IMG/VR virus record: IMGVR_UViG_3300029707_000042 | Location: 1 to 9,839 of that record | Direction: 5' to 3' (one strand) | Source: a virus | Lineage: Duplodnaviria > Heunggongvirae > Uroviricota > Caudoviricetes | DNA: 9,839 nt | Shown: piece by piece, positions 1-9,839 of the stretch | Numbering within the stretch: the first letter of the stretch is position 1 | Layout of the letters: each line of letters opens with the position of its first letter | The notes under the pieces: generated by a model | What the model saw: only the letters and a program-made list of their open reading frames with translations | What the model was told of the DNA's origin: nothing | Databases searched by the model: none | Translations under genes and position numbers: made by a program

Positions 1-48
1 TTCGTTGACTTCAACAACGCGCACCCCGTGGTGGTAATCCTGAGCCAT
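1..48 (-). CDS. Phage tail sheath protein (P2 gpFI-like), first 16 codons only; the gene continues beyond the window start
   Basis: Reverse complement of 1..48 reads ATG GCT CAG GAT TAC CAC CAC GGG GTG CGC GTT GTT GAA GTC AAC GAA = MAQDYHHGVRVVEVNE. This matches the N-terminus of P2-type sheath proteins as I recall it (MSDYHHGVQVLEINE...). AGGAGG Shine-Dalgarno on the minus strand at 58..63, 9 nt upstream of the ATG. Only 16 residues are visible, so the call depends on recalled similarity. Confidence 0.5.
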   Translation of the reverse strand, partial: MAQDYHHGVRVVEVNE

Positions 49-123
49 AGTGGCGAACCTCCTGATTGGATTAGGCTTCGCCCTATGTTGAAGTGATTGT
101 GCCTGACAAACAGCTAAACGCAG

Positions 124-143
124 TTGTGTCGTTATTCACACAA
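124..143 (-). promoter_or_regulatory. Putative P2-type late-promoter activator site (TGT-N12-ACA dyad) upstream of the sheath gene
   Basis: Sequence ttgtgtcgttattcacacaa at 124..143 has perfect inverted 6-bp arms TTGTGT/ACACAA and contains TGT (125..127), a 12-nt spacer, and ACA (140..142). The dyad centre is about 85 nt upstream of the sheath ATG at 48, compatible with the roughly -55 position of Ogr/Delta-type activator sites in P2/P4 late promoters. No strong -10 hexamer is evident. Confidence 0.3.
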
Positions 144-190
144 AATAACGGTATTTGTCTGCTTGCAGGGATAATCAACATAATGCTGAT

Positions 191-757
191 TCAGGGGGAT
201 TCATTGATCTTATTTGCCGGAAATTTTCTATAAATGGTAGAAACGCCTACATCAAAAATCAGTGCAATACGCTGTCTTGATTCTCCGGCCTCGAGTAAAC
301 GCCCAATCTGTGCCCACTGTTCGGTGGTCAACTTAGGACGGCGTCCACCTACTCTGCCTTTGGCACGAGCTGCAGCCAGCCCTGCCCTGGTACGTTCAAC
401 TATCAGTTCGCGTTCCATTTCAGCCAGGGCACCCATGACATGAAAAAAGAAACGGCCCATTGGGGTACTGGTATCAATACTGTCAGTCAGGCTTCTGAAA
501 TTCACACCACGCTGGCGCAACTCTTCTATCAGCGTAACAAGATGCCGCATACTGCGCCCCAACCTGTCCAGCTTCCAGACAACCAGCGTGTCTCCTGCCG
601 ATAGTGTCCTGAGTAGTTTTTTCAGCCCCGGTCTGTCGGACTTAGTGCCACTGATTTTGTCCTCAAAAATCCGCTCACATCCCGCGCAGTTCAGTGCATT
701 ACGTTGCAAATCGGTGTTCTGGTCATTTGTTGACACGCGTACATAGCCAATAAGCAT
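191..757 (-). CDS. pin: Serine DNA invertase (site-specific recombinase, Pin/Gin/Hin/Cin family)
   Basis: Translation MLIGYVRVSTNDQNTDLQRNAL...LVVWKLDRLGRS...GRFFFHVMGALAEMERELIVERT... has the resolvase/invertase catalytic N-domain with the active-site serine in the RVST motif and a C-terminal helix-turn-helix (GVSTIYRKF). It is near-identical in pattern to Gin/Pin as I recall them. The ORF track starts at 763 (MIMLIGY), but the second ATG at 757 has an AGGGGG Shine-Dalgarno at better spacing. Stop codon TGA at 191..193. It lies immediately beside an invertible tail-fibre segment. Confidence 0.95.
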   Translation of the reverse strand: MLIGYVRVSTNDQNTDLQRNALNCAGCERIFEDKISGTKSDRPGLKKLLRTLSAGDTLVVWKLDRLGRSMRHLVTLIEELRQRGVNFRSLTDSIDTSTPMGRFFFHVMGALAEMERELIVERTRAGLAAARAKGRVGGRRPKLTTEQWAQIGRLLEAGESRQRIALIFDVGVSTIYRKFPANKINESP

Positions 758-812
758 GATCATCCCCCTGAATAAAAACCGGAGATGATGCCAGTTAGCT
801 GTTACCTCTGCA

Positions 813-838
813 TTTTCTTAAACGTTGGTTTGGGAGAA
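813..838. repeat. Crossover site A of the invertible segment (pix/gix-like 26-bp imperfect palindrome)
   Basis: TTTTCTTAAACG TT GGTTTGGGAGAA fits the 12-2-12 layout of hix/gix/cix sites with the AAAC..GGTTT core. Its inner half plus core (TTGGTTTGGGAGAA, 825..838) is exactly the reverse complement of 2660..2673 in site B. Confidence 0.8.
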
Positions 839-1321
839 GGCTCAGCGTTACCCGTTGGTGTGCCTGTTCCGTGGCCTTCAGCCACACCACCAACAGGCTG
901 GCTGAAATGCAACGGTGCACCTTTTTCTGCCGAAGAGTACCCAAAACTGGCAAAGGCTTACCCAAAGTTAAAATTACCGGATTTGCGCGGTGAGTTTATT
1001 CGCGGGTGGGATGATGGGCGAGGTGTTGATTCCGCGAGACTGCTACTTTCAAGTCAGGCAGCATCTATCCTTGAACATAACCATGAAATGCAGGGATGGA
1101 CCGGCAACCCACTCATGGCTAGAGATGTTTATTCATCCATGTCATCCGTATTTGCGGTGCAGTTGAGCATTGGCGATGGCGGGTTATTGTATTCGTGGAA
1201 GGATGGGAGTGGAACAACAAATGACAGTAAACGAATGAATAGAACAAATCATGTCAGTTCCGGCGCCGGTGATGGTAGCCCGCGAAACATTGCATTTAAC
1301 TACATTGTGAGGGCTGCATAA
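827..1321 (+). CDS. Silent alternative tail-fibre C-terminal (receptor-binding) cassette; has no independent start and would be fused to the constant fibre N-terminus after inversion
   Basis: In-frame continuation from the crossover site (GLGE codons are shared with the expressed fibre gene). The product contains the conserved fibre motif ...CNGAPFSAEEYPKLAKAYP...LPDLRGEFIRGWDDGRGVDSAR typical of Mu S / P1 S / P2 H / lambda Stf C-terminal regions. Stop TAA at 1319..1321 is directly followed by a tail-fibre-assembly gene. The ORF-track start at 785 is judged an artefact. Confidence 0.75.
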   Translation, partial: GLGEGSALPVGVPVPWPSATPPTGWLKCNGAPFSAEEYPKLAKAYPKLKLPDLRGEFIRGWDDGRGVDSARLLLSSQAASILEHNHEMQGWTGNPLMARDVYSSMSSVFAVQLSIGDGGLLYSWKDGSGTTNDSKRMNRTNHVSSGAGDGSPRNIAFNYIVRAA

Positions 1322-1924
1322 ATGGAACAGGCTATTTTGGGAAAAGACGGTTACGCTTTAAATGATGGGGAAATCATCGTACATAACTATGATGGCGAAA
1401 CGCGGGAATATATTTCTACATCAACTGAATATCTCGCTGTCGGCGTCGGTATCCCGGCATGTTCTTGTTTAGATGCACCAGTTACACATAAAGCTGGTTA
1501 TGCAATCTGTCGCTCTGTAGATTTAAATTCATGGGAATATGTGCCAGACCATCGCGGTGAAGTTGTCTATAGTACCGAAACGGGAGATACCAAAGAAATC
1601 ACAGTTCCGGGTGATTACCCTGAAAATACAACCACTATCGCCCCGTTAACGCCATACGATAAATGGGATGGTGAGAAATGGGTGACGGATACCGAGGCAC
1701 AGCATAGCGCCGCAGTAGAAGCGGCAGAAGCACAGCGCCAGTCGCTGATTGATGCTGCAATGGCTTCCATCAGTCTGATTCAACTGAAATTACAGGCTGG
1801 GCGGAAGCTGACGCAGCCAGAAAACACCCGACTTAACGCTGTGCTGGATTACATTGACGCGGTGACGGCAACAGATACCAGCACAGCGCCGGACGTCATC
1901 TGGCCTGAACTGCCGGAGGCGTAG
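1322..1924 (+). CDS. Tail-fibre assembly protein (chaperone) partnered with the silent fibre cassette
   Basis: 200-aa ORF starting one nucleotide after the cassette stop. C-terminus ...LDYIDAVTATDTSTAPDVIWPELPEA matches the Tfa-family C-terminal pattern and resembles the C-terminus of the convergent gene 1896..2336. Position is equivalent to Mu U' or e14 TfaE. Confidence 0.85.
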   Translation: MEQAILGKDGYALNDGEIIVHNYDGETREYISTSTEYLAVGVGIPACSCLDAPVTHKAGYAICRSVDLNSWEYVPDHRGEVVYSTETGDTKEITVPGDYPENTTTIAPLTPYDKWDGEKWVTDTEAQHSAAVEAAEAQRQSLIDAAMASISLIQLKLQAGRKLTQPENTRLNAVLDYIDAVTATDTSTAPDVIWPELPEA

Positions 1925-2336
1925 GCCATTCAATATCTGGCGCACCGGAAGTATCGACCAGTTCCAGTGCGTCCAGATAATCCAGCCACAAATTATATTG
2001 CACCAGTTCCTCACCTTTCAGACGACCAATTGATGCTTTACCTGGCCATTGTTTACTGTTGATGTATTCGTTGGCCTGGTTAATCAATTGCTGCTTTTTA
2101 GTTTCGGCTGATGCAATTTGTTCTTCACGTGTTGGTGGAGGAACATCTGCCCAAGCTGGCATTCCGTCGCCTGCGGTAATTCTGCGCTTACCTTCGGGCG
2201 GCGTGTCATGGAAATATTCCCTGAAAATAGCTTCGTCTATGTCTACGCCTTTTCCTTCTGGCCATTGCCCTTTTGCAGCGTAAACAGACTGTAGGGCGTA
2301 AGGGTACGCCAGATTATCAATATATAAATATTTCAT
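1896..2336 (-). CDS. Tail-fibre assembly protein (chaperone) for the currently expressed tail fibre
   Basis: 146-aa ORF. ATG at 2336 lies 2 nt after the fibre stop (TAA 2339..2341). C-terminus ...LDYLDALELVDTSGAPDIEWPTPPAVQAR is Tfa-like. The 3' end overlaps the convergent tfa gene by 29 bp. Confidence 0.85.
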   Translation of the reverse strand: MKYLYIDNLAYPYALQSVYAAKGQWPEGKGVDIDEAIFREYFHDTPPEGKRRITAGDGMPAWADVPPPTREEQIASAETKKQQLINQANEYINSKQWPGKASIGRLKGEELVQYNLWLDYLDALELVDTSGAPDIEWPTPPAVQAR

Positions 2337-2338
2337 AA

Positions 2339-2962
2339 TTAACGCCCTTTCGCAAAGAAAGCTCCACCTTCAAATCCATAGTTACAATGCGCAACAAATC
2401 CTGTTCGCGTCCAGTTAGTTGCGCCCCACATATTCCCACCACCAAAACCGCCGTCATATACAATCACTACGTATGGCTCCTGCGTAAAAGGAATGGGGAA
2501 AGTCACATTTGTAGATACCGCCGCGGCGTTAGTCGGGAAATTAATTCTTCCCCACTGTTCAATTGAACCATCAGGCAATTTTTGCCAGCCAGATCCTGAT
2601 GAATAAGCTGACATGTCTGGTATCTGATTCGCCCCAGTCCCCACATTCCTTTTCGCCGCTTCTCCCAAACCAAGGTTTTCGAGAGCCGTTTTCACCGTGC
2701 CATCCGATTTGATATCGCCAAACGGATTCTTGCGGCTTAACAGCAGCGCACGAAGTGCGGTAAGCAGCTGGTCATGCCGCCCTTTCTCCAGGCTGGCACC
2801 GGAGGCCTCCACCACGCTACAAAGTTCTTCCTGCAACATGTCAAAGTAGTCATCATCCAGATCGGTGGCAGGTGTGCCGGTCTGGGGGTTACCACGGGTA
2901 AAACCGTTCTTACCCGCGCCGAACTTATCCTTCTGCGCGGTTTTCGTGTCTATACGATGCAT
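2339..2962 (-). CDS. Short tail-fibre protein in its current orientation (constant N-terminal part 2673..2962 plus variable C-terminal part 2339..2672 inside the invertible segment)
   Basis: 207-aa ORF. ATG at 2962 with GGAG Shine-Dalgarno 6 nt upstream, starting 3 nt after the stop of the upstream gp48-like gene. The N-terminus (..[28 protein letters not shown]..) resembles the fibre N-terminal constant region of Mu S-type fibres. Crossover site B lies inside the coding sequence at the ENLGLGE codons. Confidence 0.85.
2660..2685. repeat. Crossover site B of the invertible segment (pix/gix-like), located inside the tail-fibre coding sequence
   Basis: TTCTCCCAAACC AA GGTTTTCGAGAG has the 12-2-12 layout. 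2660..2673 is the exact reverse complement of 825..838. The outer halves differ from site A (7 of 12 positions match). Confidence 0.8.
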
Positions 2963-2965
2963 GGA

Positions 2966-3550
2966 TTACTCCGGATATTTAAAAATTACGTAGGTATGCG
3001 AAGGGCAGAGTTTGTTAAGCACGCACTCGACAACGGTGTCGCCCCAGATACGCAGTGCGGAATCACAGGGATCGCCACATGTCATCCAGGTGGTGTTGGT
3101 GGCGGCTGGCATGTTGACCTGCCAGTAATACCGCCATTCCGGCGCATTCACTGCGTCAGTACAGGCCGATGAGCAGGTGAACGTGCTTTTATCGTATCGC
3201 GTGATAGTGGCGTCTGGTCTGCCCAGGGCAGCAAGCTGTGCAAGATAAAAATCCTCATTGATGCCGCCCGCCAGATTAACCTTCGCATCCAGCCGTTGCT
3301 GACGCTGGCGAAGGGTCTGTGTCCCTGCGGGAATACATTCATCCGGCAGACCGCACAGACGCTCCCAGCGGTTTATCAGTTCAGTGGTGGTGCGCGGATC
3401 CAGCTCCCGCATCAGGGCATCCGCACGCTGATGAACGCGGGTTAATGACGGTGCCGCACCGGCAATCGCCGGATCGCTGACTGACCACGCCGGACCGGGC
3501 GGCAACAGTGCCGACAACAGACGGATATAATCATCGTTTGTCACGTCCAT
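2966..3550 (-). CDS. Tail/baseplate protein, Mu gp48 / P2 gpI-like (DUF2313, YmfQ-like)
   Basis: 194-aa ORF. Start overlaps the stop of the J-like gene. It sits immediately upstream of the tail-fibre gene, as in Mu (gp48-S) and P2 (I-H). Call is from position, size and general sequence character, not a verified alignment. Confidence 0.75.
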
Positions 3551-4590
3551 GAAATCGTCCCCAGAACCGCCAGCTCATTTTTTGCAATGGAGATATTGTC
3601 CGCCGGGGCAAGCAACTGATGGCTGTATTCCCCGTTCGCACCGGAAATCGCTTCACTGATACGTGACACCTTCAGTTCTCCCTGCGGATAACCATCACGC
3701 AGCAGGAACGAACGCAACTCGGCGGTGATGGCAGCCCGTATTTCCGGTGTGTCCGGCGTCACGCGGATATGAAAATCCACTTTATGCGCCACCGGCCTGA
3801 ATACATACAAATCAGAGCCTGCCACCGGGGCCAGTGGCTCGATATGTTGTCTTGCCGCCGTTTCCGTTGACTCTTCCGGAATGGGATTAATCAGGTCACT
3901 GCTGGCAATCATCACACCGACAGTCCCCGTTCCCATCCAGTGTCGGTATGTCCATGCGCGGGTAATGCCGGGCACTTCTTTAGCCCAGACGACATAGTCC
4001 CCGTCAGCCCCGCCCTGAGGCGTCCAGTAATACCGCTCAATGACGCGGGCGCGCCACGTTTCCAGCTCTTCAGTATCAAATCCGCCTGTCAGGGTGTCAG
4101 CCACACCGGAAGACGGCAGACCATTCACCGGCGTGACCAGGATTAATGCCGTACCGTCGTCAGCGTTACCGACCGCGCCTGTAGTTGAGCAAGTGATCGG
4201 CACACGCAGGACACCACCAGTGCTGGTTGCATCGGCAGTTGCCGTGTACTGAACCAGGTCATCGCGCTGAATAACACTCCCGGCGGTCACCTTCAGGCCA
4301 TCGCTGACACCTTCCCAGCGCATATACCCGCTGGCAGCCGTGGCCCCCTTGCGCGGACACCGTTTCATCGCAGCATGTCGCGCCAGCCAGGACTCATCGC
4401 ACAGATCAGGCAGCATGTTCATTGCCAGATAATCGATGTAACCGTAAACCGTATGCAGCGCCGCCGCATACACCTTTGCCCGCACGTCTTCATCCATGCG
4501 CCGGAGCGTGTCGCTGACGTCCAGCCTGGCGAATAAATCGTTACGGAGCATACTGATATTTTCTGCCAGCGTCNNNNNNNNNNNNGCCAT
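3541..4590 (-). CDS. Baseplate J-like protein (Mu gp47 / P2 gpJ family); 5' end uncertain because of the N run
   Basis: About 340-350-aa ORF with the conserved position between the gp46-like and gp48/I-like genes. The true start is either ATG 4590 (upstream of the N run) or the internal ATG near 4551 (ISMLRND), which would give a short overlap with the preceding gene like the other junctions in this operon. Confidence 0.8.
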
Positions 4591-5005
4591 GCGTTATCGC
4601 ACTCCACAGATCATCAAAAGAAATCATTACCGGTCCGTCACGACGCCAGAGAGTGATACTGTTACCCAGTTCATTAATCCCGGTGCGGCGGATATCCAGA
4701 TCAATACGGGACACCACGCCATCATCAATCATCCATTGCAGGCATTCGCGGATATACCCCCTTACCGTCTGCACCAGCTGATTGGTCAGTTTGCTGCGCT
4801 GAAGCAGCCACAGTCGGGAGCCGTAACGGTCATTCTGTACCGCAGGCCAGGTATCCCCCCACCATCCCATCGGGACGTCGGCGTTGTCATCAGGCTCCGC
4901 CCGCCGCCAGGTAAACAGGGAAATCACCACGGCGCGGGTCAGCGGATCCAGCGGTGCGCTGGCGCAGGTGCGTTTACCGTTCACCGTCAGCCACAGTTCC
5001 ATCAT
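4541..5005 (-). CDS. Baseplate protein, Mu gp46-like (phage GP46 family); 3' end interrupted by the 12-nt N run
   Basis: ORF starts with ATG at 5005, overlapping the stop of the V-like gene, and is about 150 aa. Small protein between the spike (gp45/V) and J-like genes, as in Mu. The C-terminal about 14 codons are uncertain because of the Ns at 4574..4585. Confidence 0.65.
   Translation of the reverse strand: MMELWLTVNGKRTCASAPLDPLTRAVVISLFTWRRAEPDDNADVPMGWWGDTWPAVQNDRYGSRLWLLQRSKLTNQLVQTVRGYIRECLQWMIDDGVVSRIDLDIRRTGINELGNSITLWRRDGPVMISFDDLWSAITHGXXXXDAGRKYQYAP
4574..4585. other. Run of 12 ambiguous bases (N): assembly gap or masked sequence
   Basis: Seen directly in the sequence (gtcnnnnnnnnnnnngccat). 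It falls at the junction of the gp46-like and J-like genes. Confidence 0.99.
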
Positions 5006-5550
5006 GCCTCCATCGCTTTATCAGGTTTGTCGGTGTTACTGCCCTGACCGTTCTCTCTGTGACGATGCCCGTTATAGGCAAGCCGCATCGCTGACATGGT
5101 GGTGCCGCTGGAGTCGCACAGGTCTTTCACCTGTCCTGTCACTTCCAGGTCCATTTCAAAACGTGCTTTAGGTGAATTGCGAAACGTGATCGTTTTACCT
5201 GCACCGTCCACCACGATCCCCTCCCGGGTCAGCGTCACGGACTGCCCCTGATCGTCATAGACAGCCACCTCACCCGTCTGCAGCCCTTTCAGGCGGTAAC
5301 GCCGATCCGACACCGTAACAACCACCGCATGAGAACGGTCGCCATCCGGAAACAACACCACCGCTTCCGCACCGCTGTTTGCCCTTGCGGTAAAACCGTA
5401 AGGTTCAAGATGTTCAACCCCGGCTTTGGGTTCACCGGCAATCAGGGACACATCCACGGTCTGACATTTCGTTGCGGCACTGATGCTTTTCACCACGGCC
5501 CGCCCAATCAGCCCGAGGAGTTGTCGCTGTATGGTTTCAATCGCCCTCAT
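5002..5550 (-). CDS. Baseplate assembly / spike protein, Mu gp45 / P2 gpV-like
   Basis: 182-aa ORF. The start ATG shares one nucleotide with the upstream stop (TGATG). The C-terminal region contains an H-x-H motif (YNGHRHRENGQG), like the metal-binding apex of gpV/gp45-type spikes. Position between the gpD-like and gp46-like genes. Confidence 0.8.
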   Translation of the reverse strand: MRAIETIQRQLLGLIGRAVVKSISAATKCQTVDVSLIAGEPKAGVEHLEPYGFTARANSGAEAVVLFPDGDRSHAVVVTVSDRRYRLKGLQTGEVAVYDDQGQSVTLTREGIVVDGAGKTITFRNSPKARFEMDLEVTGQVKDLCDSSGTTMSAMRLAYNGHRHRENGQGSNTDKPDKAMEA

Positions 5551-6629
5551 CAGAACGGGTCCTCCTGTACTCTGGCTTTTTTCTTTTTCCGCGCGCCGGG
5601 ATCTTCGGGTTCAGGCAGATAAGCATCAGGCGGGCCGACACGGATTTCCGTCAGGGTGCCGTTCTGGTCCTGAGTAAACGTGACTTCCGAAACAAGCAGT
5701 TCGGTATTGTCGAAACCACAGACCGGATCAAAGACAATCACCCGCTGGTTGGGCTGCCACAGCGTACCGTTACCCTGTCGCCAGCCCTGCACCACATAGG
5801 TGGTTTCATCCGTCCGCGCCGCCCGTTGTCGGGCTTCAAAGTCAGCACGCGCAATACAGCCTGCCCCCGTGGCCTGCCCTGTCTGCCTGATATACATCGG
5901 ACGGTAACGGGCAATAAATGCGTCCTCTGTGCGGGCCCGCAGCGCGGTGGTGGTGGCCTCACCGAAATCATCGTCGTTTCCGGCACGCTGCCCCGCCACC
6001 TGGTAAACTGAAAACCGCTCCCGGATACTCTTCTCCGTATCACAGGAAAGGATGTTTTCCCCAAGTACCAGCGCGGTATGTGCCCGCGTTGAGCCAATAC
6101 CGCCAATCACCAGCCTGCCGTGCGGGTCGTCGTAAGCCAGTGCCTGCTGCTGACCGAGTATTTTGTTGATTACCTCAATCACCGTTTCACCGTGATCAGG
6201 CTGGACGTCAGGAATAACACCCGACGGCGCACCGTTGTTCACCACCTCAATGCCGAAGGGCGCAGCAAGCGCCTGCGCAATCTGTACCAGCGATCGTCCG
6301 TTAAACTGTGTCGGTTCGGCTGCACAGTCAATCAGATCAGCGGTTAGACTGCGTCCGGCAATACCGGTGCTGACCGAACGGGCATCGTAACGAACGGGCG
6401 TCGCCTCCACCCAGCCGGTGATCACCAGCTCATCACCAATCAGCACTTCCACTTTTGAACCGTTTTTAATGCGCGGCTGAAGCGTGGTGATACCCTCATC
6501 TCCCGGCCACTGGCGGGTGATCTCCACACTGAAATCCCGCGCCAGTCGTTCAACACCGGCACCGATGCGCACCGATGTCCAGCCATTCCACTCCCGGCCA
6601 TTTACCCGTAGCGTGACGTTATCGTTCAT
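5550..6629 (-). CDS. Tail/baseplate hub protein, Mu gp44 (P) / P2 gpD-like
   Basis: 359-aa ORF. ATG at 6629 overlaps the stop of the gp43-like gene. Size and position match Mu P / P2 D-type proteins. Basic C-terminal tail (ARKKKKARVQEDPF). Confidence 0.75.
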   Translation of the reverse strand: MNDNVTLRVNGREWNGWTSVRIGAGVERLARDFSVEITRQWPGDEGITTLQPRIKNGSKVEVLIGDELVITGWVEATPVRYDARSVSTGIAGRSLTADLIDCAAEPTQFNGRSLVQIAQALAAPFGIEVVNNGAPSGVIPDVQPDHGETVIEVINKILGQQQALAYDDPHGRLVIGGIGSTRAHTALVLGENILSCDTEKSIRERFSVYQVAGQRAGNDDDFGEATTTALRARTEDAFIARYRPMYIRQTGQATGAGCIARADFEARQRAARTDETTYVVQGWRQGNGTLWQPNQRVIVFDPVCGFDNTELLVSEVTFTQDQNGTLTEIRVGPPDAYLPEPEDPGARKKKKARVQEDPF

Positions 6630-7999
6630 TGCACTGGCACCTTCAGAGGGATCACCGGCACAAAGCCGGGATGCGTAATGGCATTACGCCGGATAATGTC
6701 CGCGTCACGCGCCGCGTTATCAAACCAGGTCGCCGCCAGCACCAGCGCGGGTAAAACCTCATCCGGCGTGCGCTGAATGATCCGTGCAGACTGTTCAAGG
6801 CGCGTGTTGATATCCGCATTCAGATCTGCTTTCACCCGGCGCAGCGCCAGAAACAGCGCATCACTGGTTGTACGGGACAACTCCTTATCAATTGCCGTAT
6901 TCAGTGTGTCGCGAATGTCAGTCAGTTCTTCCCACGTCGGCAGGTCAACCGTGTTTTTCACCGCCGGTGCATTGTTCAGTGCCGGATGCGTGACGGAAGG
7001 CCAGCCAGTGCTCTGCGCAGGTGTTGTTGCCTGCCCCACTGCGGAATTCTGCATCACCGCGGAAGTTGTTGGCGCAGGTAATCGGGTGACGGCATACGCC
7101 GCTTCGCTGATTGCGGTCGTACGAAGGGTGCTGGCAACCACGTTACGCTGCTGCGTCGCCGTGGCGGTGGTTTTACTGTCCGTTTTCCAGACGCCGCGCG
7201 GTTGCAGATCGCTGCCGAGGCTGACACCGGAAAGCGTTTTGATCATGGTGACCAGGTCGCTGGCGTTACCATAAAGGCGTTTCCCGGTACGCCACATTTT
7301 CTGCACCTGCTCAACGAAATTTTTGCCTGACGATGGCGGCGGCAGAAGTACCGAGATATCCCCCTGCAACAGCCTGGCGGCATCCGATACGGCAGAATCC
7401 ACCACTTTCATCGCATCAGAAACATACCCCAGCATTATGCTGGCATTACCGATAACGTCGTTCTGCACGAAATCCGCCACACCATCGATACTGAAACCGC
7501 TGAAGCTGTCACTGATGCAGTCATCCAGTGCAGAACAGGATGACATCAGCGTCTGCGCCGTCGCCGCACCTGATGTGGGGTAAGAGAGTTCTCCTGCTTC
7601 GACAAACTTCAGGTCAAAGCGGACAATACGCCCTTCACTTTTCGATGTGCTGACCCGAACTTCCCCGTCAACACAGACTTTCAGCTCACCATATGTCGGG
7701 TGGACAAGCGTGCCGGGACCGGGTTTATTCAGCGCTTCAATCAGGCGATCGCGCTGGTCAAAGCAGTCATCTCCCACCACATAAGCTGTGATGGACGGGC
7801 GGAAAGTGACTTTTCCCAGATCTTCGGTATAGGGCTTGTCGCGGTTCGGGTATTCATGTGTTTCCACACGGCGACCGGTTCCCGCACTTTCTTCTTCAAC
7901 CTTAAACGGCACACCTCGAAATGATGCTTCAAGTAGCTTTTCACGCCAGCCACTTCGAGAATCAGAGGATAGGTACGAAGAAATATGAGAAAAATCCAT
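6626..7999 (-). CDS. DNA circulation protein, Mu gp43 (N)-like tail protein
   Basis: 457-aa ORF. GAGGTG Shine-Dalgarno 5 nt upstream of ATG 7999. N-terminal region (..FRGVPFKVEEESAGTGRRVETHEYPNRDKPYTEDLG..) resembles the DNA-circulation N-terminal domain family. Position between tape-measure and gpD-like genes as in Mu and SfV-type tails. Confidence 0.75.
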   Translation of the reverse strand: MDFSHISSYLSSDSRSGWREKLLEASFRGVPFKVEEESAGTGRRVETHEYPNRDKPYTEDLGKVTFRPSITAYVVGDDCFDQRDRLIEALNKPGPGTLVHPTYGELKVCVDGEVRVSTSKSEGRIVRFDLKFVEAGELSYPTSGAATAQTLMSSCSALDDCISDSFSGFSIDGVADFVQNDVIGNASIMLGYVSDAMKVVDSAVSDAARLLQGDISVLLPPPSSGKNFVEQVQKMWRTGKRLYGNASDLVTMIKTLSGVSLGSDLQPRGVWKTDSKTTATATQQRNVVASTLRTTAISEAAYAVTRLPAPTTSAVMQNSAVGQATTPAQSTGWPSVTHPALNNAPAVKNTVDLPTWEELTDIRDTLNTAIDKELSRTTSDALFLALRRVKADLNADINTRLEQSARIIQRTPDEVLPALVLAATWFDNAARDADIIRRNAITHPGFVPVIPLKVPVQ

Positions 8000-8014
8000 G
8001 GCGTCACCTCAAAT

Positions 8015-8040
8015 AAAAACCGCGTGTAAACGCGGTTTTT
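8015..8040. terminator. Rho-independent terminator, structurally bidirectional; terminates the inserted gene 8056..8544
   Basis: AAAAACCGCG-TGTAAA-CGCGGTTTTT: GC-rich CCGCG/CGCGG stem extended by A5/T5, with a 6-nt loop, followed by a T/U tract on both strands. It lies 15 nt after the stop of the inserted gene and ends about 12 nt before the gp43-like RBS. Confidence 0.7.
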
Positions 8041-8055
8041 TATTAGGTAATAAAA

Positions 8056-8544
8056 TTAACGATCATAATCAACATTATGAGTATCTATTCTACATGATGA
8101 ATAAGTAATTCCGCTTTCACCACTAATATTTACGCCAGCCTTTACCTTCCCTGTTTTCGTAACATCAACAAAGAATTGCCCTCTTGGCATTTTAAATGCA
8201 AAAGAGAAACCAATAATTTCCGAGTCAAAGTTATTTTCATCCTCACTAATTGGTACAATAAAAGTCAATGGTGCAGATTGTGAGTTATTTTCAAAATCAA
8301 AAGCACCAATGCTTTTATTAAACTCGTAGGATGCTTTTTTTATTAAAAGAGTTCCACTTGCCGACTTTGCTGGGCATATTACAGACAGTCTATTTATTCC
8401 CTCTACATCTAGATCTATATTCTTATCCGCTGAAGTTTTAACGTTATCTATAAAGTATGTAGCAAGCTGCTTTTCCGTTACTGGCTTCGCAAAGGAGTTT
8501 AATGGCAGTCCTACAGCCAACAACAATATAAACATTTTCTTCAT
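8056..8544 (-). CDS. Inserted (moron-like) gene for a small secreted protein of unknown function, with a Sec-type signal peptide
   Basis: Reverse complement of 8521..8544 is ATG AAG AAA ATG TTT ATA TTG TTG (MKKMFILL...), with TAGGAGAG Shine-Dalgarno 3-4 nt upstream. The N-terminus MKKMFILLLAVGLPLNSFA-KPV is a classic signal peptide with an AxA-like cleavage site and no lipobox cysteine. The gene is visibly AT-rich compared with the flanking tail genes and is followed by its own terminator. The ORF track begins at an upstream GTG (8577), which I consider less likely. A long ORF in AT-rich DNA is unlikely to arise by chance. Confidence 0.7.
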   Translation of the reverse strand: MKKMFILLLAVGLPLNSFAKPVTEKQLATYFIDNVKTSADKNIDLDVEGINRLSVICPAKSASGTLLIKKASYEFNKSIGAFDFENNSQSAPLTFIVPISEDENNFDSEIIGFSFAFKMPRGQFFVDVTKTGKVKAGVNISGESGITYSSCRIDTHNVDYDR

Positions 8545-8608
8545 ATTCTCTCCTACATTCAGCACAAACTTTACCACTCAATAACCCTACTTGATTAAAG
8601 TAGTTATA
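8545..8608 (-). promoter_or_regulatory. Putative promoter region for the inserted gene (possible extended -10 TGgTAAAGT); also contains a short hairpin CTACTT-gatta-AAGTAG at 8587..8603
   Basis: 63-bp AT-rich spacer between the tape-measure stop (TAA, 8609..8611) and the inserted gene's ATG. On the minus strand, TGGTAAAGT (complement of 8568..8576) resembles an extended -10 element. No convincing -35 hexamer is present. Speculative. Confidence 0.25.
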
Positions 8609-9839
8609 TTATCGTCTGAATGGAGAATACCCCACATCGTGCGTGATTTTCATCAGGGGATCGGCTTTGCCCGGTACATCAATTATCTTCATACCTGGCG
8701 GAGCATTCTCGAACGTGACTTTCAGCTCGCTGTGCTGTGTCATGGAAGAAGATGGATTCAACAGCGGAACATTGGGTTTGTACTGACTCAGGCTGGCCTG
8801 ATACTGCTCGTACTCTTTACGATCAAAAAAAGGCGTCCAGTCTGAAGCCAGAAACAGCCCTTTATTATCCAGCCAGTTAACCGTATCTTCAGGAACAACA
8901 CTTTCCAGAGTATCTTTAACCGGCTCATACATCAGGGTTCCCAGAAAACCATATACCCCGGCCTTCCCGATAAAGCCGCGGCCTTTCCCCATCAATCCCG
9001 TTTCTGCCGATACCTTCCCCAGCGTACGCATCTCTCTGGTCACTGCGGTAATGGATTTGGTAACGTCAGCAACCCATTTGGTTGCCATAAACAGGGCAAT
9101 CGCTTTCAGAACAGTTTCCCATCCCCCCATCATCTGCGCCGTTTCATCCACCACGTGCCAGACTTTTTTTATGACAGGACCTACGGTTTCCCAATTATCA
9201 ATAATGAGGTAAGCGCCACCAACCAGAAGAGCAATCAGCCCCTTAGCAGGCGTCATATTCATCACACCGCCGAGAACTTTCATGATTCTGGACAAAGAGC
9301 CTGCAGCGGCCCCCACTGTCAGTAAAGCCAGACCGATTTTAGCAATGGTCTTAACGAGCTCCGGGTTTTCACGGACAAACGTTCTCACTTCCTCAAGGAG
9401 CGGTTTTACCGCTTCAAGACCATCATTAACCTCAGGAAGAAACGTTTCCCCCAGAGTGGAAGAAATGGCATCAAGTTGATTTTGCAGAAGTAAAAGCTGG
9501 TTTTCCGTCGTCGCTGCCCTCGAAGCATATTCCTTCTGCATCGAACTGCCATACTGCTGGGAATCCGCAACCCGCCTGAAGTTGGTACGCAACAAATCAA
9601 GGTTAGTCAGCAGAGGAGCTATCGCGCCCAGAGACTCTTTCCCGAACAGGGCATTCAGCACAGCTGCCTGTTTTTCTTTAGGCACTTTAGCCATCGCATC
9701 CAGTACAGACAGCATGGTTCCCCGGGCATCTTTCTGCATATCAGCAGCTAATTTCTTCGGATTGATCCGCAGAAAACGTAATGCCTGTTTCTGCGATTTT
9801 GTCGCGGAATTTCCCGCGGTCAGGGAAAGCATGAAGTTC
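8609..9839 (-). CDS. Tail tape-measure protein, C-terminal part (the gene continues beyond the window end)
   Basis: Open frame running to the window edge with no upstream stop. The product has the usual tape-measure character: helical, Q/A/L-rich N-proximal part and a hydrophobic glycine-rich segment (IAKIGLALLTVGAAAGSL...GLIALLVGGAYLII). Position is immediately upstream of the DNA-circulation and baseplate genes, as in Mu-type tails. Confidence 0.8.
   Translation of the reverse strand, partial: NFMLSLTAGNSATKSQKQALRFLRINPKKLAADMQKDARGTMLSVLDAMAKVPKEKQAAVLNALFGKESLGAIAPLLTNLDLLRTNFRRVADSQQYGSSMQKEYASRAATTENQLLLLQNQLDAISSTLGETFLPEVNDGLEAVKPLLEEVRTFVRENPELVKTIAKIGLALLTVGAAAGSLSRIMKVLGGVMNMTPAKGLIALLVGGAYLIIDNWETVGPVIKKVWHVVDETAQMMGGWETVLKAIALFMATKWVADVTKSITAVTREMRTLGKVSAETGLMGKGRGFIGKAGVYGFLGTLMYEPVKDTLESVVPEDTVNWLDNKGLFLASDWTPFFDRKEYEQYQASLSQYKPNVPLLNPSSSMTQHSELKVTFENAPPGMKIIDVPGKADPLMKITHDVGYSPFRR

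Follow-up and report, generated by a model that had tools for sequence, protein, structure and literature searches.

The comparisons below show, or strongly support, that a small gene inside the tail operon of a temperate coliphage is an optional, non-virion accessory gene, and that it occupies a recurrent slot between the tail tape-measure gene and a resident terminator. The gene lies in a stretch of 9,839 nucleotides (nt), positions 1 to 9,839 of the IMG/VR virus record IMGVR_UViG_3300029707_000042 (Caudoviricetes), which is referred to as the window. This open reading frame (ORF), called the cargo ORF, covers 8056..8544 on the minus strand, stop codon included. It starts with ATG and encodes a protein of 162 amino acids (aa) whose translation begins MKKMFILLLAVGLPLNSFAKPV. 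The protein belongs to PHROG 5586, is predicted to be exported, and may be a periplasmic binder by which superinfecting phages are excluded, a reading to which a probability of about 0.4 is assigned. The cargo ORF is an uncharacterised prophage accessory gene in a tail operon, a kind already known.

The optional nature of the gene is seen at the junction itself. The tape-measure gene and the N gene that follows it are separated by 24 nt in phage SfIV, versus 609 nt in the window. A slot survey covered 80 IMG/VR loci, chosen for the greatest similarity in N (N at least 95%, P 98-100% identical), a sample biased towards loci with a near-identical N gene, and the end of the tape-measure gene was located in 75 of them. 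An empty junction of 36-78 nt was present in 30 of the 75, members of the cargo-ORF family in 13, phrog_5485 in 13, phrog_8976 in 14, and phrog_8545 in 5. Loci sharing the tape-measure allele of the window (98-100% identical; N at least 95%) carried the cargo ORF in 13-14 cases and no cargo in 24. The gene is also absent from the SfIV, SfV, and O157 prophages. Related prophages lacking the insert at this junction, for which the preliminary description proposed a search, do occur. Its view that the tape-measure and DNA-circulation genes are normally adjacent does not agree with the survey, where only the 30 empty junctions among 75 correspond to that arrangement.

The same junction was followed in 5,426 complete Escherichia coli genomes, using window positions 7700-8900 as a probe. 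Partial matches were obtained in 1,091 genomes (about 20%), mostly through the 5' part of the N gene. The cargo ORF occurred in 101 genomes and the whole junction in an equal number. A paralogue 49% identical to the cargo ORF was found in 11 genomes, and phrog_5485, an unrelated gene of 176 aa in the same slot, in 178. Several of these genes are interrupted by insertion sequences (IS). An IS1 sits at the 5' end of the cargo ORF in E. coli PEC122, an IS1-like element (judged by its ORFs) breaks the paralogue in locus L042, and an IS5 disrupts the alternative cargo in EC21Z-014. These insertions indicate that the AT-rich slot attracts IS elements and that the cargo is dispensable.

The four cargos of the slot have no sequence similarity when compared with each other. 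They all measure 148-176 aa, have G+C contents (GC) of 0.31-0.37, and carry an N-terminal signal peptide or membrane anchor. The phrog_8976 gene encodes 170 aa. The phrog_8545 gene encodes 148 aa on the opposite strand, for which it must have its own promoter; it matches PF12869 (tRNA_anti-like), and phrog_8545 is labelled "superinfection exclusion Sie-like" (1.5e-49). A literature search on tRNA_anti-like Sie proteins gave no result. In one locus of this type (L105), a GC-rich hairpin at 3449-3470, CAGGGAGGGCCGTCCCTCCCTG, with a folding free energy (dG) of -17.9 kcal/mol, lies between the convergent tape-measure and Sie-like cargo genes and looks like a bidirectional terminator. Cargo type in the slot survey follows the tape-measure allele and the first 4-18 codons of N. 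In the window, the first 16 codons of N (7952..7999, minus strand, 48 nt) have a GC of 0.35, diverge from SfIV, and co-vary with the type of cargo, so the cargo module has its recombination boundary at this place.

The base composition of the cargo ORF differs clearly from that of its surroundings. Its GC is 0.344 and its GC at third codon positions (GC3) 0.264, versus 0.55-0.58 and 0.58-0.64, respectively, in the six baseplate and hub genes gp43-gp48; the partial tape-measure gene in the window has a GC of 0.50. Codon adaptation, calculated against a pool of tail genes that themselves score 0.66-0.79, is 0.54 for the cargo ORF, the minimum in the window. A spacer of 64 nt (8545..8608, minus strand; GC 0.33), free of a consensus promoter, separates the tape-measure stop codon from the start of the cargo ORF. 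It holds a Shine-Dalgarno sequence, AGGAG, read directly from the sequence at 8550..8554 on the minus strand, 5 nt 5' of the ATG. The preliminary description is upheld in its strong Shine-Dalgarno, its AT-rich spacer, and its contrast with the flanks, now measured as 34% versus 55-58% GC and as the lowest codon adaptation in the window. The AT-rich block was correctly outlined for the ORF and the spacer, and its continuation into the N gene (7952-7999) had been missed. The same coding sequence of 489 nt is annotated by RefSeq in enterotoxigenic E. coli (ETEC) H10407 as ETEC_RS23655 (WP_000738066.1). The cargo ORF contains a run of seven A on the coding strand at 8335-8341 (…LLIKKAS…). Three database clusters from read-archive assemblies (P0008-P0010) are frameshifted exactly at this run, which could be due to sequencing error or slippage.

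Low GC was taken in the preliminary description as a sign of horizontal acquisition. A recent acquisition is not supported, given the age of the arrangement. For locus finding, the family alignment was too divergent and a 4-sequence alignment was used. The family alignment recovered 37 IMG/VR loci, and in each of them a homologue at 43-55% identity has exactly this position and orientation. These loci form four lineages (A-D), whose tape-measure proteins are 48-74% and N proteins 53-73% identical to those of the window. Across the four lineages, tape-measure identity is 45-74%. Between lineages, the proportion of synonymous differences (pS) in the cargo gene is about 0.7, i.e., saturated, and that of non-synonymous differences (pN) 0.22-0.39. 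Saturation together with the shared position fits a co-divergence of the cargo gene with the tail module, and the excess of pS over pN indicates that the gene is functional and under purifying selection. Its GC is 0.35-0.39 in every lineage, with flanks at 0.47-0.56. Low GC is here a maintained property of the gene rather than a timestamp of transfer.

Within the block formed by the tape-measure gene, the cargo ORF, N, and P, the cargo gene had the lowest conservation in nine pairwise comparisons out of ten; in the remaining one it shared this place with the tape measure. For instance, between loci L044 and L050 the cargo proteins are 58% identical and their neighbours 81-89%. Lineage A shows 8 non-synonymous and 2 synonymous changes in the cargo gene, with a ratio of non-synonymous to synonymous rates (omega) of 0.82 versus 0.06-0.23 for the flanks. 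Lineage D (L045-L049, L051, and L054; about 7879-9749) has roughly 1.9 kb of extra DNA between N and P, comprising a 528-aa tail-protein-like ORF (phrog_5939/1419) and a 94-aa ORF (phrog_18574), which represents a second variable point in the baseplate module. Hits in metagenome-assembled genomes of Firmicutes (L015-L017; 25-28% identity over 80 aa) were unconfirmed by tblastn with the cargo protein and were discarded as spurious.

The cargo ORF had also been described as a self-contained unit with its own terminator. A terminator-like hairpin followed by a T-run does exist at 8010..8041 on the minus strand, with a GC stem (8020-8024 / 8031-8035) and an A/T extension. It was missed by a consensus terminator scan and recovered by direct folding (dG -20.4 kcal/mol, z = -3.7; none of 200 shuffles fold as well). 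This hairpin is situated directly 5' of the Shine-Dalgarno sequence of N, outside the segment 8056-8608 that had been described as the unit. GC-rich hairpins with a T-run occur within the last 46-61 nt before the N start in all five tail-embedded lineage representatives, and their stem sequences all differ. Hairpins with a T-run are also present at the same place, upstream of the N Shine-Dalgarno, in the SfV and O157:H7 prophages, which lack the cargo ORF, and in EC974, which carries an alternative cargo. Among the junctions compared, only those of SfIV type are without the N-proximal hairpin. The terminator is therefore a feature of the junction backbone and is not specific to the ORF.

Nor is the idea of a self-contained unit supported on the upstream side. 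A sigma-70-like promoter scan of 7700-9000 detected no site, and a relaxed scan 5' of the tail-embedded homologues found none with at least 9 of 12 matches in the lineages scanned. These calls are rule-based, and consensus scans may miss a weak or activator-dependent promoter. A weak extended -10-like sequence, TGGTAAAGT, was noticed by eye only in the spacer. Given the shared orientation, the distance of 64 nt from the tape-measure stop codon, and the lack of a detectable promoter of its own, the simplest interpretation is that the cargo ORF is co-transcribed with the tape-measure gene. Nothing was retrieved from the literature on the accession, on the phage by name, or on the H10407 prophage, and no expression data were found.

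The product of the cargo ORF has the features of an exported protein. A Sec signal peptide, MKKMFILLLAVGLPLNSFA, is predicted by a rule-based check of sequence features in codons 1-19 (8488..8544, minus strand), with cleavage before K20. It consists of MKK, a hydrophobic core, and SFA/K, where the slash marks the cleavage site. The tripartite pattern and an aligned xxA/K site are found in all 12 full-length members of the family. A Sec signal peptide had also been noted in the preliminary description. The mature part contains two cysteines, C57 and C151, 94 residues apart, close to the spacing of about 100 originally noted, and two cysteines are likewise present in the mature part of 12 of 12 full-length members. 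C151 is invariant and C57 nearly so. Apart from the start methionine, the invariant or near-invariant residues of the family are Cys, Gly, and Phe, a composition that points to a binding scaffold and not to an enzyme. A lipoprotein was also considered and rejected, since a lipobox-like LTSC occurs in lineage B only and the pattern in P0014, at residues 6-9, is too near the N-terminus.

The cargo ORF had been put forward as a candidate for something undescribed, and the family already exists as PHROG 5586, of unknown function. The match is full-length (residues 1-161 versus profile positions 1-161 of 161, E = 2.6e-85). The cargo protein gave no match in NCBIfam or PADLOC, and no significant one in Pfam or among PDB sequences, whether searched as a single protein or as profiles of 3 and 11 sequences. 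HMMER, run exhaustively against 1.84 billion cluster representatives, recovered only 17 relatives, and public labels for the cargo protein read "hypothetical" or "phage protein". PHROG 5586 is a tiny Enterobacterales family, and its named carriers are Escherichia, Shigella, Salmonella, and Pantoea.

A structural model was obtained with AlphaFold from an 11-sequence alignment (mean predicted local distance difference test, pLDDT, 85.9; predicted template modelling score, pTM, 0.79); it is a prediction from a shallow alignment, and a 3-sequence alignment gave an unusable model (pLDDT 38). The model shows a helix at residues 24-41 followed by eight strands. The mature protein is accordingly predicted to comprise an N-terminal helix and an eight-stranded antiparallel up-and-down calycin-like beta-barrel, which would fold in the periplasm. 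C57 lies just past the first strand and C151 in the last one, and a disulfide bond between them is plausible in the model. Structure searches matched avidins, fatty-acid-binding proteins (FABPs), lipocalin-like proteins, and GID4, with no significant match to a specific calycin or lipocalin-like member.

Distant members of the family are 26-30% identical to the cargo protein, with E-values from 1e-6 to 3e-9 against a profile built without them. Two of them stand alone in phage-plasmid-like contigs, next to genes for ParA and repressors; one of these contigs, L007, also encodes an IncFII RepA and PemIK. In phage-plasmid-like elements, the homologue has a terminator of its own and stands by itself beside replication, partition, and repressor genes. 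The third distant member (L008, a metagenomic contig) follows a tape-measure gene and a HIRAN-domain gene. The HIRAN-domain gene is located between the other two, in the segment 2387-2974, and has weak PADLOC PDC-M03B hits. It is preceded by promoter-like TTGACC/TATAGA hexamers, seen by eye; the relaxed scan reported no site there.

The cargo protein is envelope-directed by its predicted signal peptide, its gene is optional in this tail backbone and non-virion, and all contexts of the family are prophages or phage-plasmid-like. The preferred reading is a periplasmic binding protein that excludes superinfecting phages. In this proposal, the cargo gene would be transcribed together with the tape-measure gene; late transcription antiterminated by Q would pass the hairpin into the baseplate genes, and a non-antiterminated transcript would end at the hairpin. 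The Sec-exported product would fold in the periplasm as a binding scaffold and might intercept an infection component entering this compartment; candidates are the tail tip, a channel formed from the tape measure, and a cell-wall hydrolase. Lysogens, or infected cells, would thereby be protected from other phages, and the rapid sequence turnover of the protein could reflect an arms race with the intercepted targets. Exclusion is suggested because of the Sie-like label of a slot-mate, the precedent of HK97 gp15, and the conflict-like pattern of evolutionary rates.

Several observations weigh against exclusion. The protein has no homology to known exclusion or defence proteins in PADLOC or NCBIfam, and in PHROG only the unknown-function family 5586 was matched. 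No promoter was found, and expression in the repressed state of the prophage is only putative. What the location suggests comes from the database annotation of one neighbouring cargo family and not from experiment. The fold is generic and fits the binding of small ligands or lipids equally well, and the within-lineage omega of the cargo gene is based on just 10 substitutions. Moreover, many genomes positive for the ORF have two or three matches to the junction, with a mean of about 1.5 in the 30 genomes listed and of 1.1 overall; anecdotally, nothing indicates that the gene protects its carriers against polylysogeny with related phages. A broader proposal is somewhat less probable than exclusion itself: the junction could turn out to be a hotspot, not recognised before, for anti-phage cargo directed at the envelope, and PHROG 5586 a new soluble periplasmic exclusion family that intercepts the tail tip or the tape-measure complex on entry and is co-inherited with the linked tape-measure allele.

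Two other functions are unlikely, each to a similar degree. The protein could be a lysogenic-conversion factor aimed at the environment of the host, either a periplasmic inhibitor or binder acting against lysozyme, proteases, colicins, or toxins of type VI secretion systems, or an aid to colonisation. The preliminary description favoured lysogenic-conversion cargo encoding an exported factor; accessory status and predicted export are retained from it, and the self-contained unit is not. The lysozyme inhibitors MliC, PliC, and PhiA share with the AlphaFold model of the cargo protein a small eight-stranded beta-barrel, but identity is at most 14% and the cargo protein has an additional N-terminal helix. 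No Pfam match to MliC/PliC was obtained with 11 members at E up to 10, and none among PDB sequences at E up to 10, and the cargo protein has no sequence relationship to any other inhibitor family either. MliC and PliC insert loops with the motifs SxSGAxY and YxxxTKG into the active site of lysozyme. A tetrapeptide SASG of the cargo protein resembles the MliC loop motif but sits elsewhere in the fold. It is present in lineages A-D and not conserved in distant members, which have SFDG, EATG, AGGL, and KGTN at this place, and YxxxTKG is missing. Commensal, wastewater, and environmental isolates also carry the gene, and a host-directed role would leave its strict linkage to one tail slot unexplained.

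The second of these functions would be to assist the phage's own lytic cycle. Expressed late, the protein would act in the periplasm when the cell is dying, where it would prevent wasted ejections on infected cells or debris, or tune lysis. Such a role agrees with the late-operon orientation of the gene, with its place 64 nt past the tape-measure stop and ahead of the resident terminator, with the failure to find a separate promoter, and with the position long held in four tail lineages. Llp of phage T5 is a precedent. Nevertheless, the gene is dispensable, as shown by 24 loci with the same backbone that lack it and by the IS1 disruptions in PEC122 and L042, and the phage-plasmid-like homologues are found near maintenance and immunity genes and not near late genes.

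Less probable still is a role as a calycin-type carrier, in which the protein would bind a small hydrophobic ligand (lipid, isoprenoid, or lipopolysaccharide precursor) and remodel the envelope. A structural or assembly component of the tail, or a decaying non-functional ORF, is very improbable: the conserved position between the tape-measure gene and N in four lineages would suit a structural role, but assembly of virions in the cytoplasm cannot be reconciled with a conserved Sec signal peptide, many phages that share these tail genes lack the cargo gene, unrelated genes substitute for it, and purifying selection with intact full-length copies in all lineages speaks against decay. The classification as cargo in the preliminary description is supported over that of a conserved structural component, given an optional gene on a near-identical backbone, its replacement by unrelated genes, and distant homologues outside tail operons.

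The window belongs to a widespread type of prophage. Positions 7700-8900 are 100% identical to Escherichia phage vB_EcoM-720R4 (ON470603), whose gene order matches that of the window, and 99.9% identical to a prophage of ETEC H10407 integrated beside dusA. The H10407 prophage is of the SfV/SfIV type and combines a head like that of HK97 with lambdoid regulation, in which a Q-type antiterminator takes part, and with a contractile tail resembling that of Mu. A Q antiterminator has been described in SfIV (PMC3851460). The downstream neighbour of the cargo ORF is the N gene (6626..7999, minus strand), encoding a Mu gp43-like DNA circulation or baseplate hub protein (PF07157, 1e-33; phrog_184, 8e-144). 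The upstream neighbour is the 3' part of the tail tape-measure gene (8609..9832, minus strand; phrog_17727, 4.6e-110), which runs off the end of the window; the complete gene in ON470603 encodes 633 aa. An Rfam scan of the window found no known RNA element.

Other parts of these genomes deserve mention. The prophage of H10407 also encodes regulators of the GrlR family (33095-33415 of the locus) and the PerC family (39761-40255), families of virulence regulation in attaching-effacing E. coli, and these genes are possible further prophage cargo. The whole junction of tape-measure gene, cargo ORF, and N is present at 185719-186918 of NZ_CP126947.1, a 204-kb conjugative plasmid of avian pathogenic E. 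coli (APEC) E18005, so at least part of the prophage has moved onto a plasmid. In the window, a run of 12 N at 4574-4585 breaks the overlap of the gp46-like and gp47-like genes and leaves an X in both translations; the overlap is intact across this site in L020 and related loci (…THGGQ-stop and MADSEFQRPTLAEN…). A serine invertase of the Gin/Cin type (191-763, minus strand) adjoins an invertible tail-fibre region resembling the Mu G segment (191-2962 as a whole). The invertible region contains alternative fibre C-termini and assembly genes on opposite strands, and two 20-nt inverted repeats, 95% complementary, lie at 820-839 and 2659-2678. Tail fibres of this Mu type with a Gin-type invertase would, by analogy with Mu, presumably recognise lipopolysaccharide as receptor rather than FhuA.

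If the cargo protein is an exclusion factor, a mechanism based on a soluble periplasmic protein would join a class in which membrane proteins and lipoproteins predominate. The gene would then also point to a minable slot in a very common prophage type of E. coli, Shigella, and Salmonella, in which four unrelated exported or anchored cargos are already visible. Should it have no phenotype, it is one more hypothetical prophage ORF. In either case, low GC in a phage gene can outlast deep divergence and is an unreliable sign of recent transfer, and a terminator beside a cargo gene may belong to the backbone.

The cargo ORF can be compared with the morons of other phages. According to the Juhala/Hendrix definition, a moron is extra DNA that close relatives lack at the same junction; it has a promoter and a terminator of its own and is expressed while the prophage is repressed (PMC3594210). 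Here, absence from relatives at the junction was found and the GC contrast recurs in all four lineages; the terminator is not the gene's own. HK97 gp15, the product of a moron that neighbours the tape-measure gene in the tail operon, blocks the entry of DNA (PMC3594210). Both are small accessory genes by the tape measure in the tail operon of a temperate coliphage, with a deviant GC, an envelope product, and absence from close relatives. Unlike the cargo protein, gp15 is an inner-membrane, YebO-related protein with its own promoter and terminator and a proven exclusion phenotype. The cargo protein is instead a predicted soluble periplasmic beta-barrel without sequence similarity to gp15, for which no promoter was found and whose terminator is common to cargo-less relatives. 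Superinfection exclusion by gp15 was reportedly the subject of Cumby et al. in 2012.

Tail-associated exclusion genes are known from further phages. Cor of phi80 and Llp of T5 are outer-membrane lipoproteins that block FhuA, as is Cor of N15. They carry a lipobox, unlike the cargo family, where a lipobox-like motif is confined to lineage B. Cor of phi80/N15 is an exported protein encoded in or beside the tail genes and prevents superinfection (PMC3594210). Llp of T5 has these properties as well. If the cargo protein does exclude superinfecting phages, its logic would be analogous to that of HK97 gp15, Cor/Llp, and T4 Spackle.

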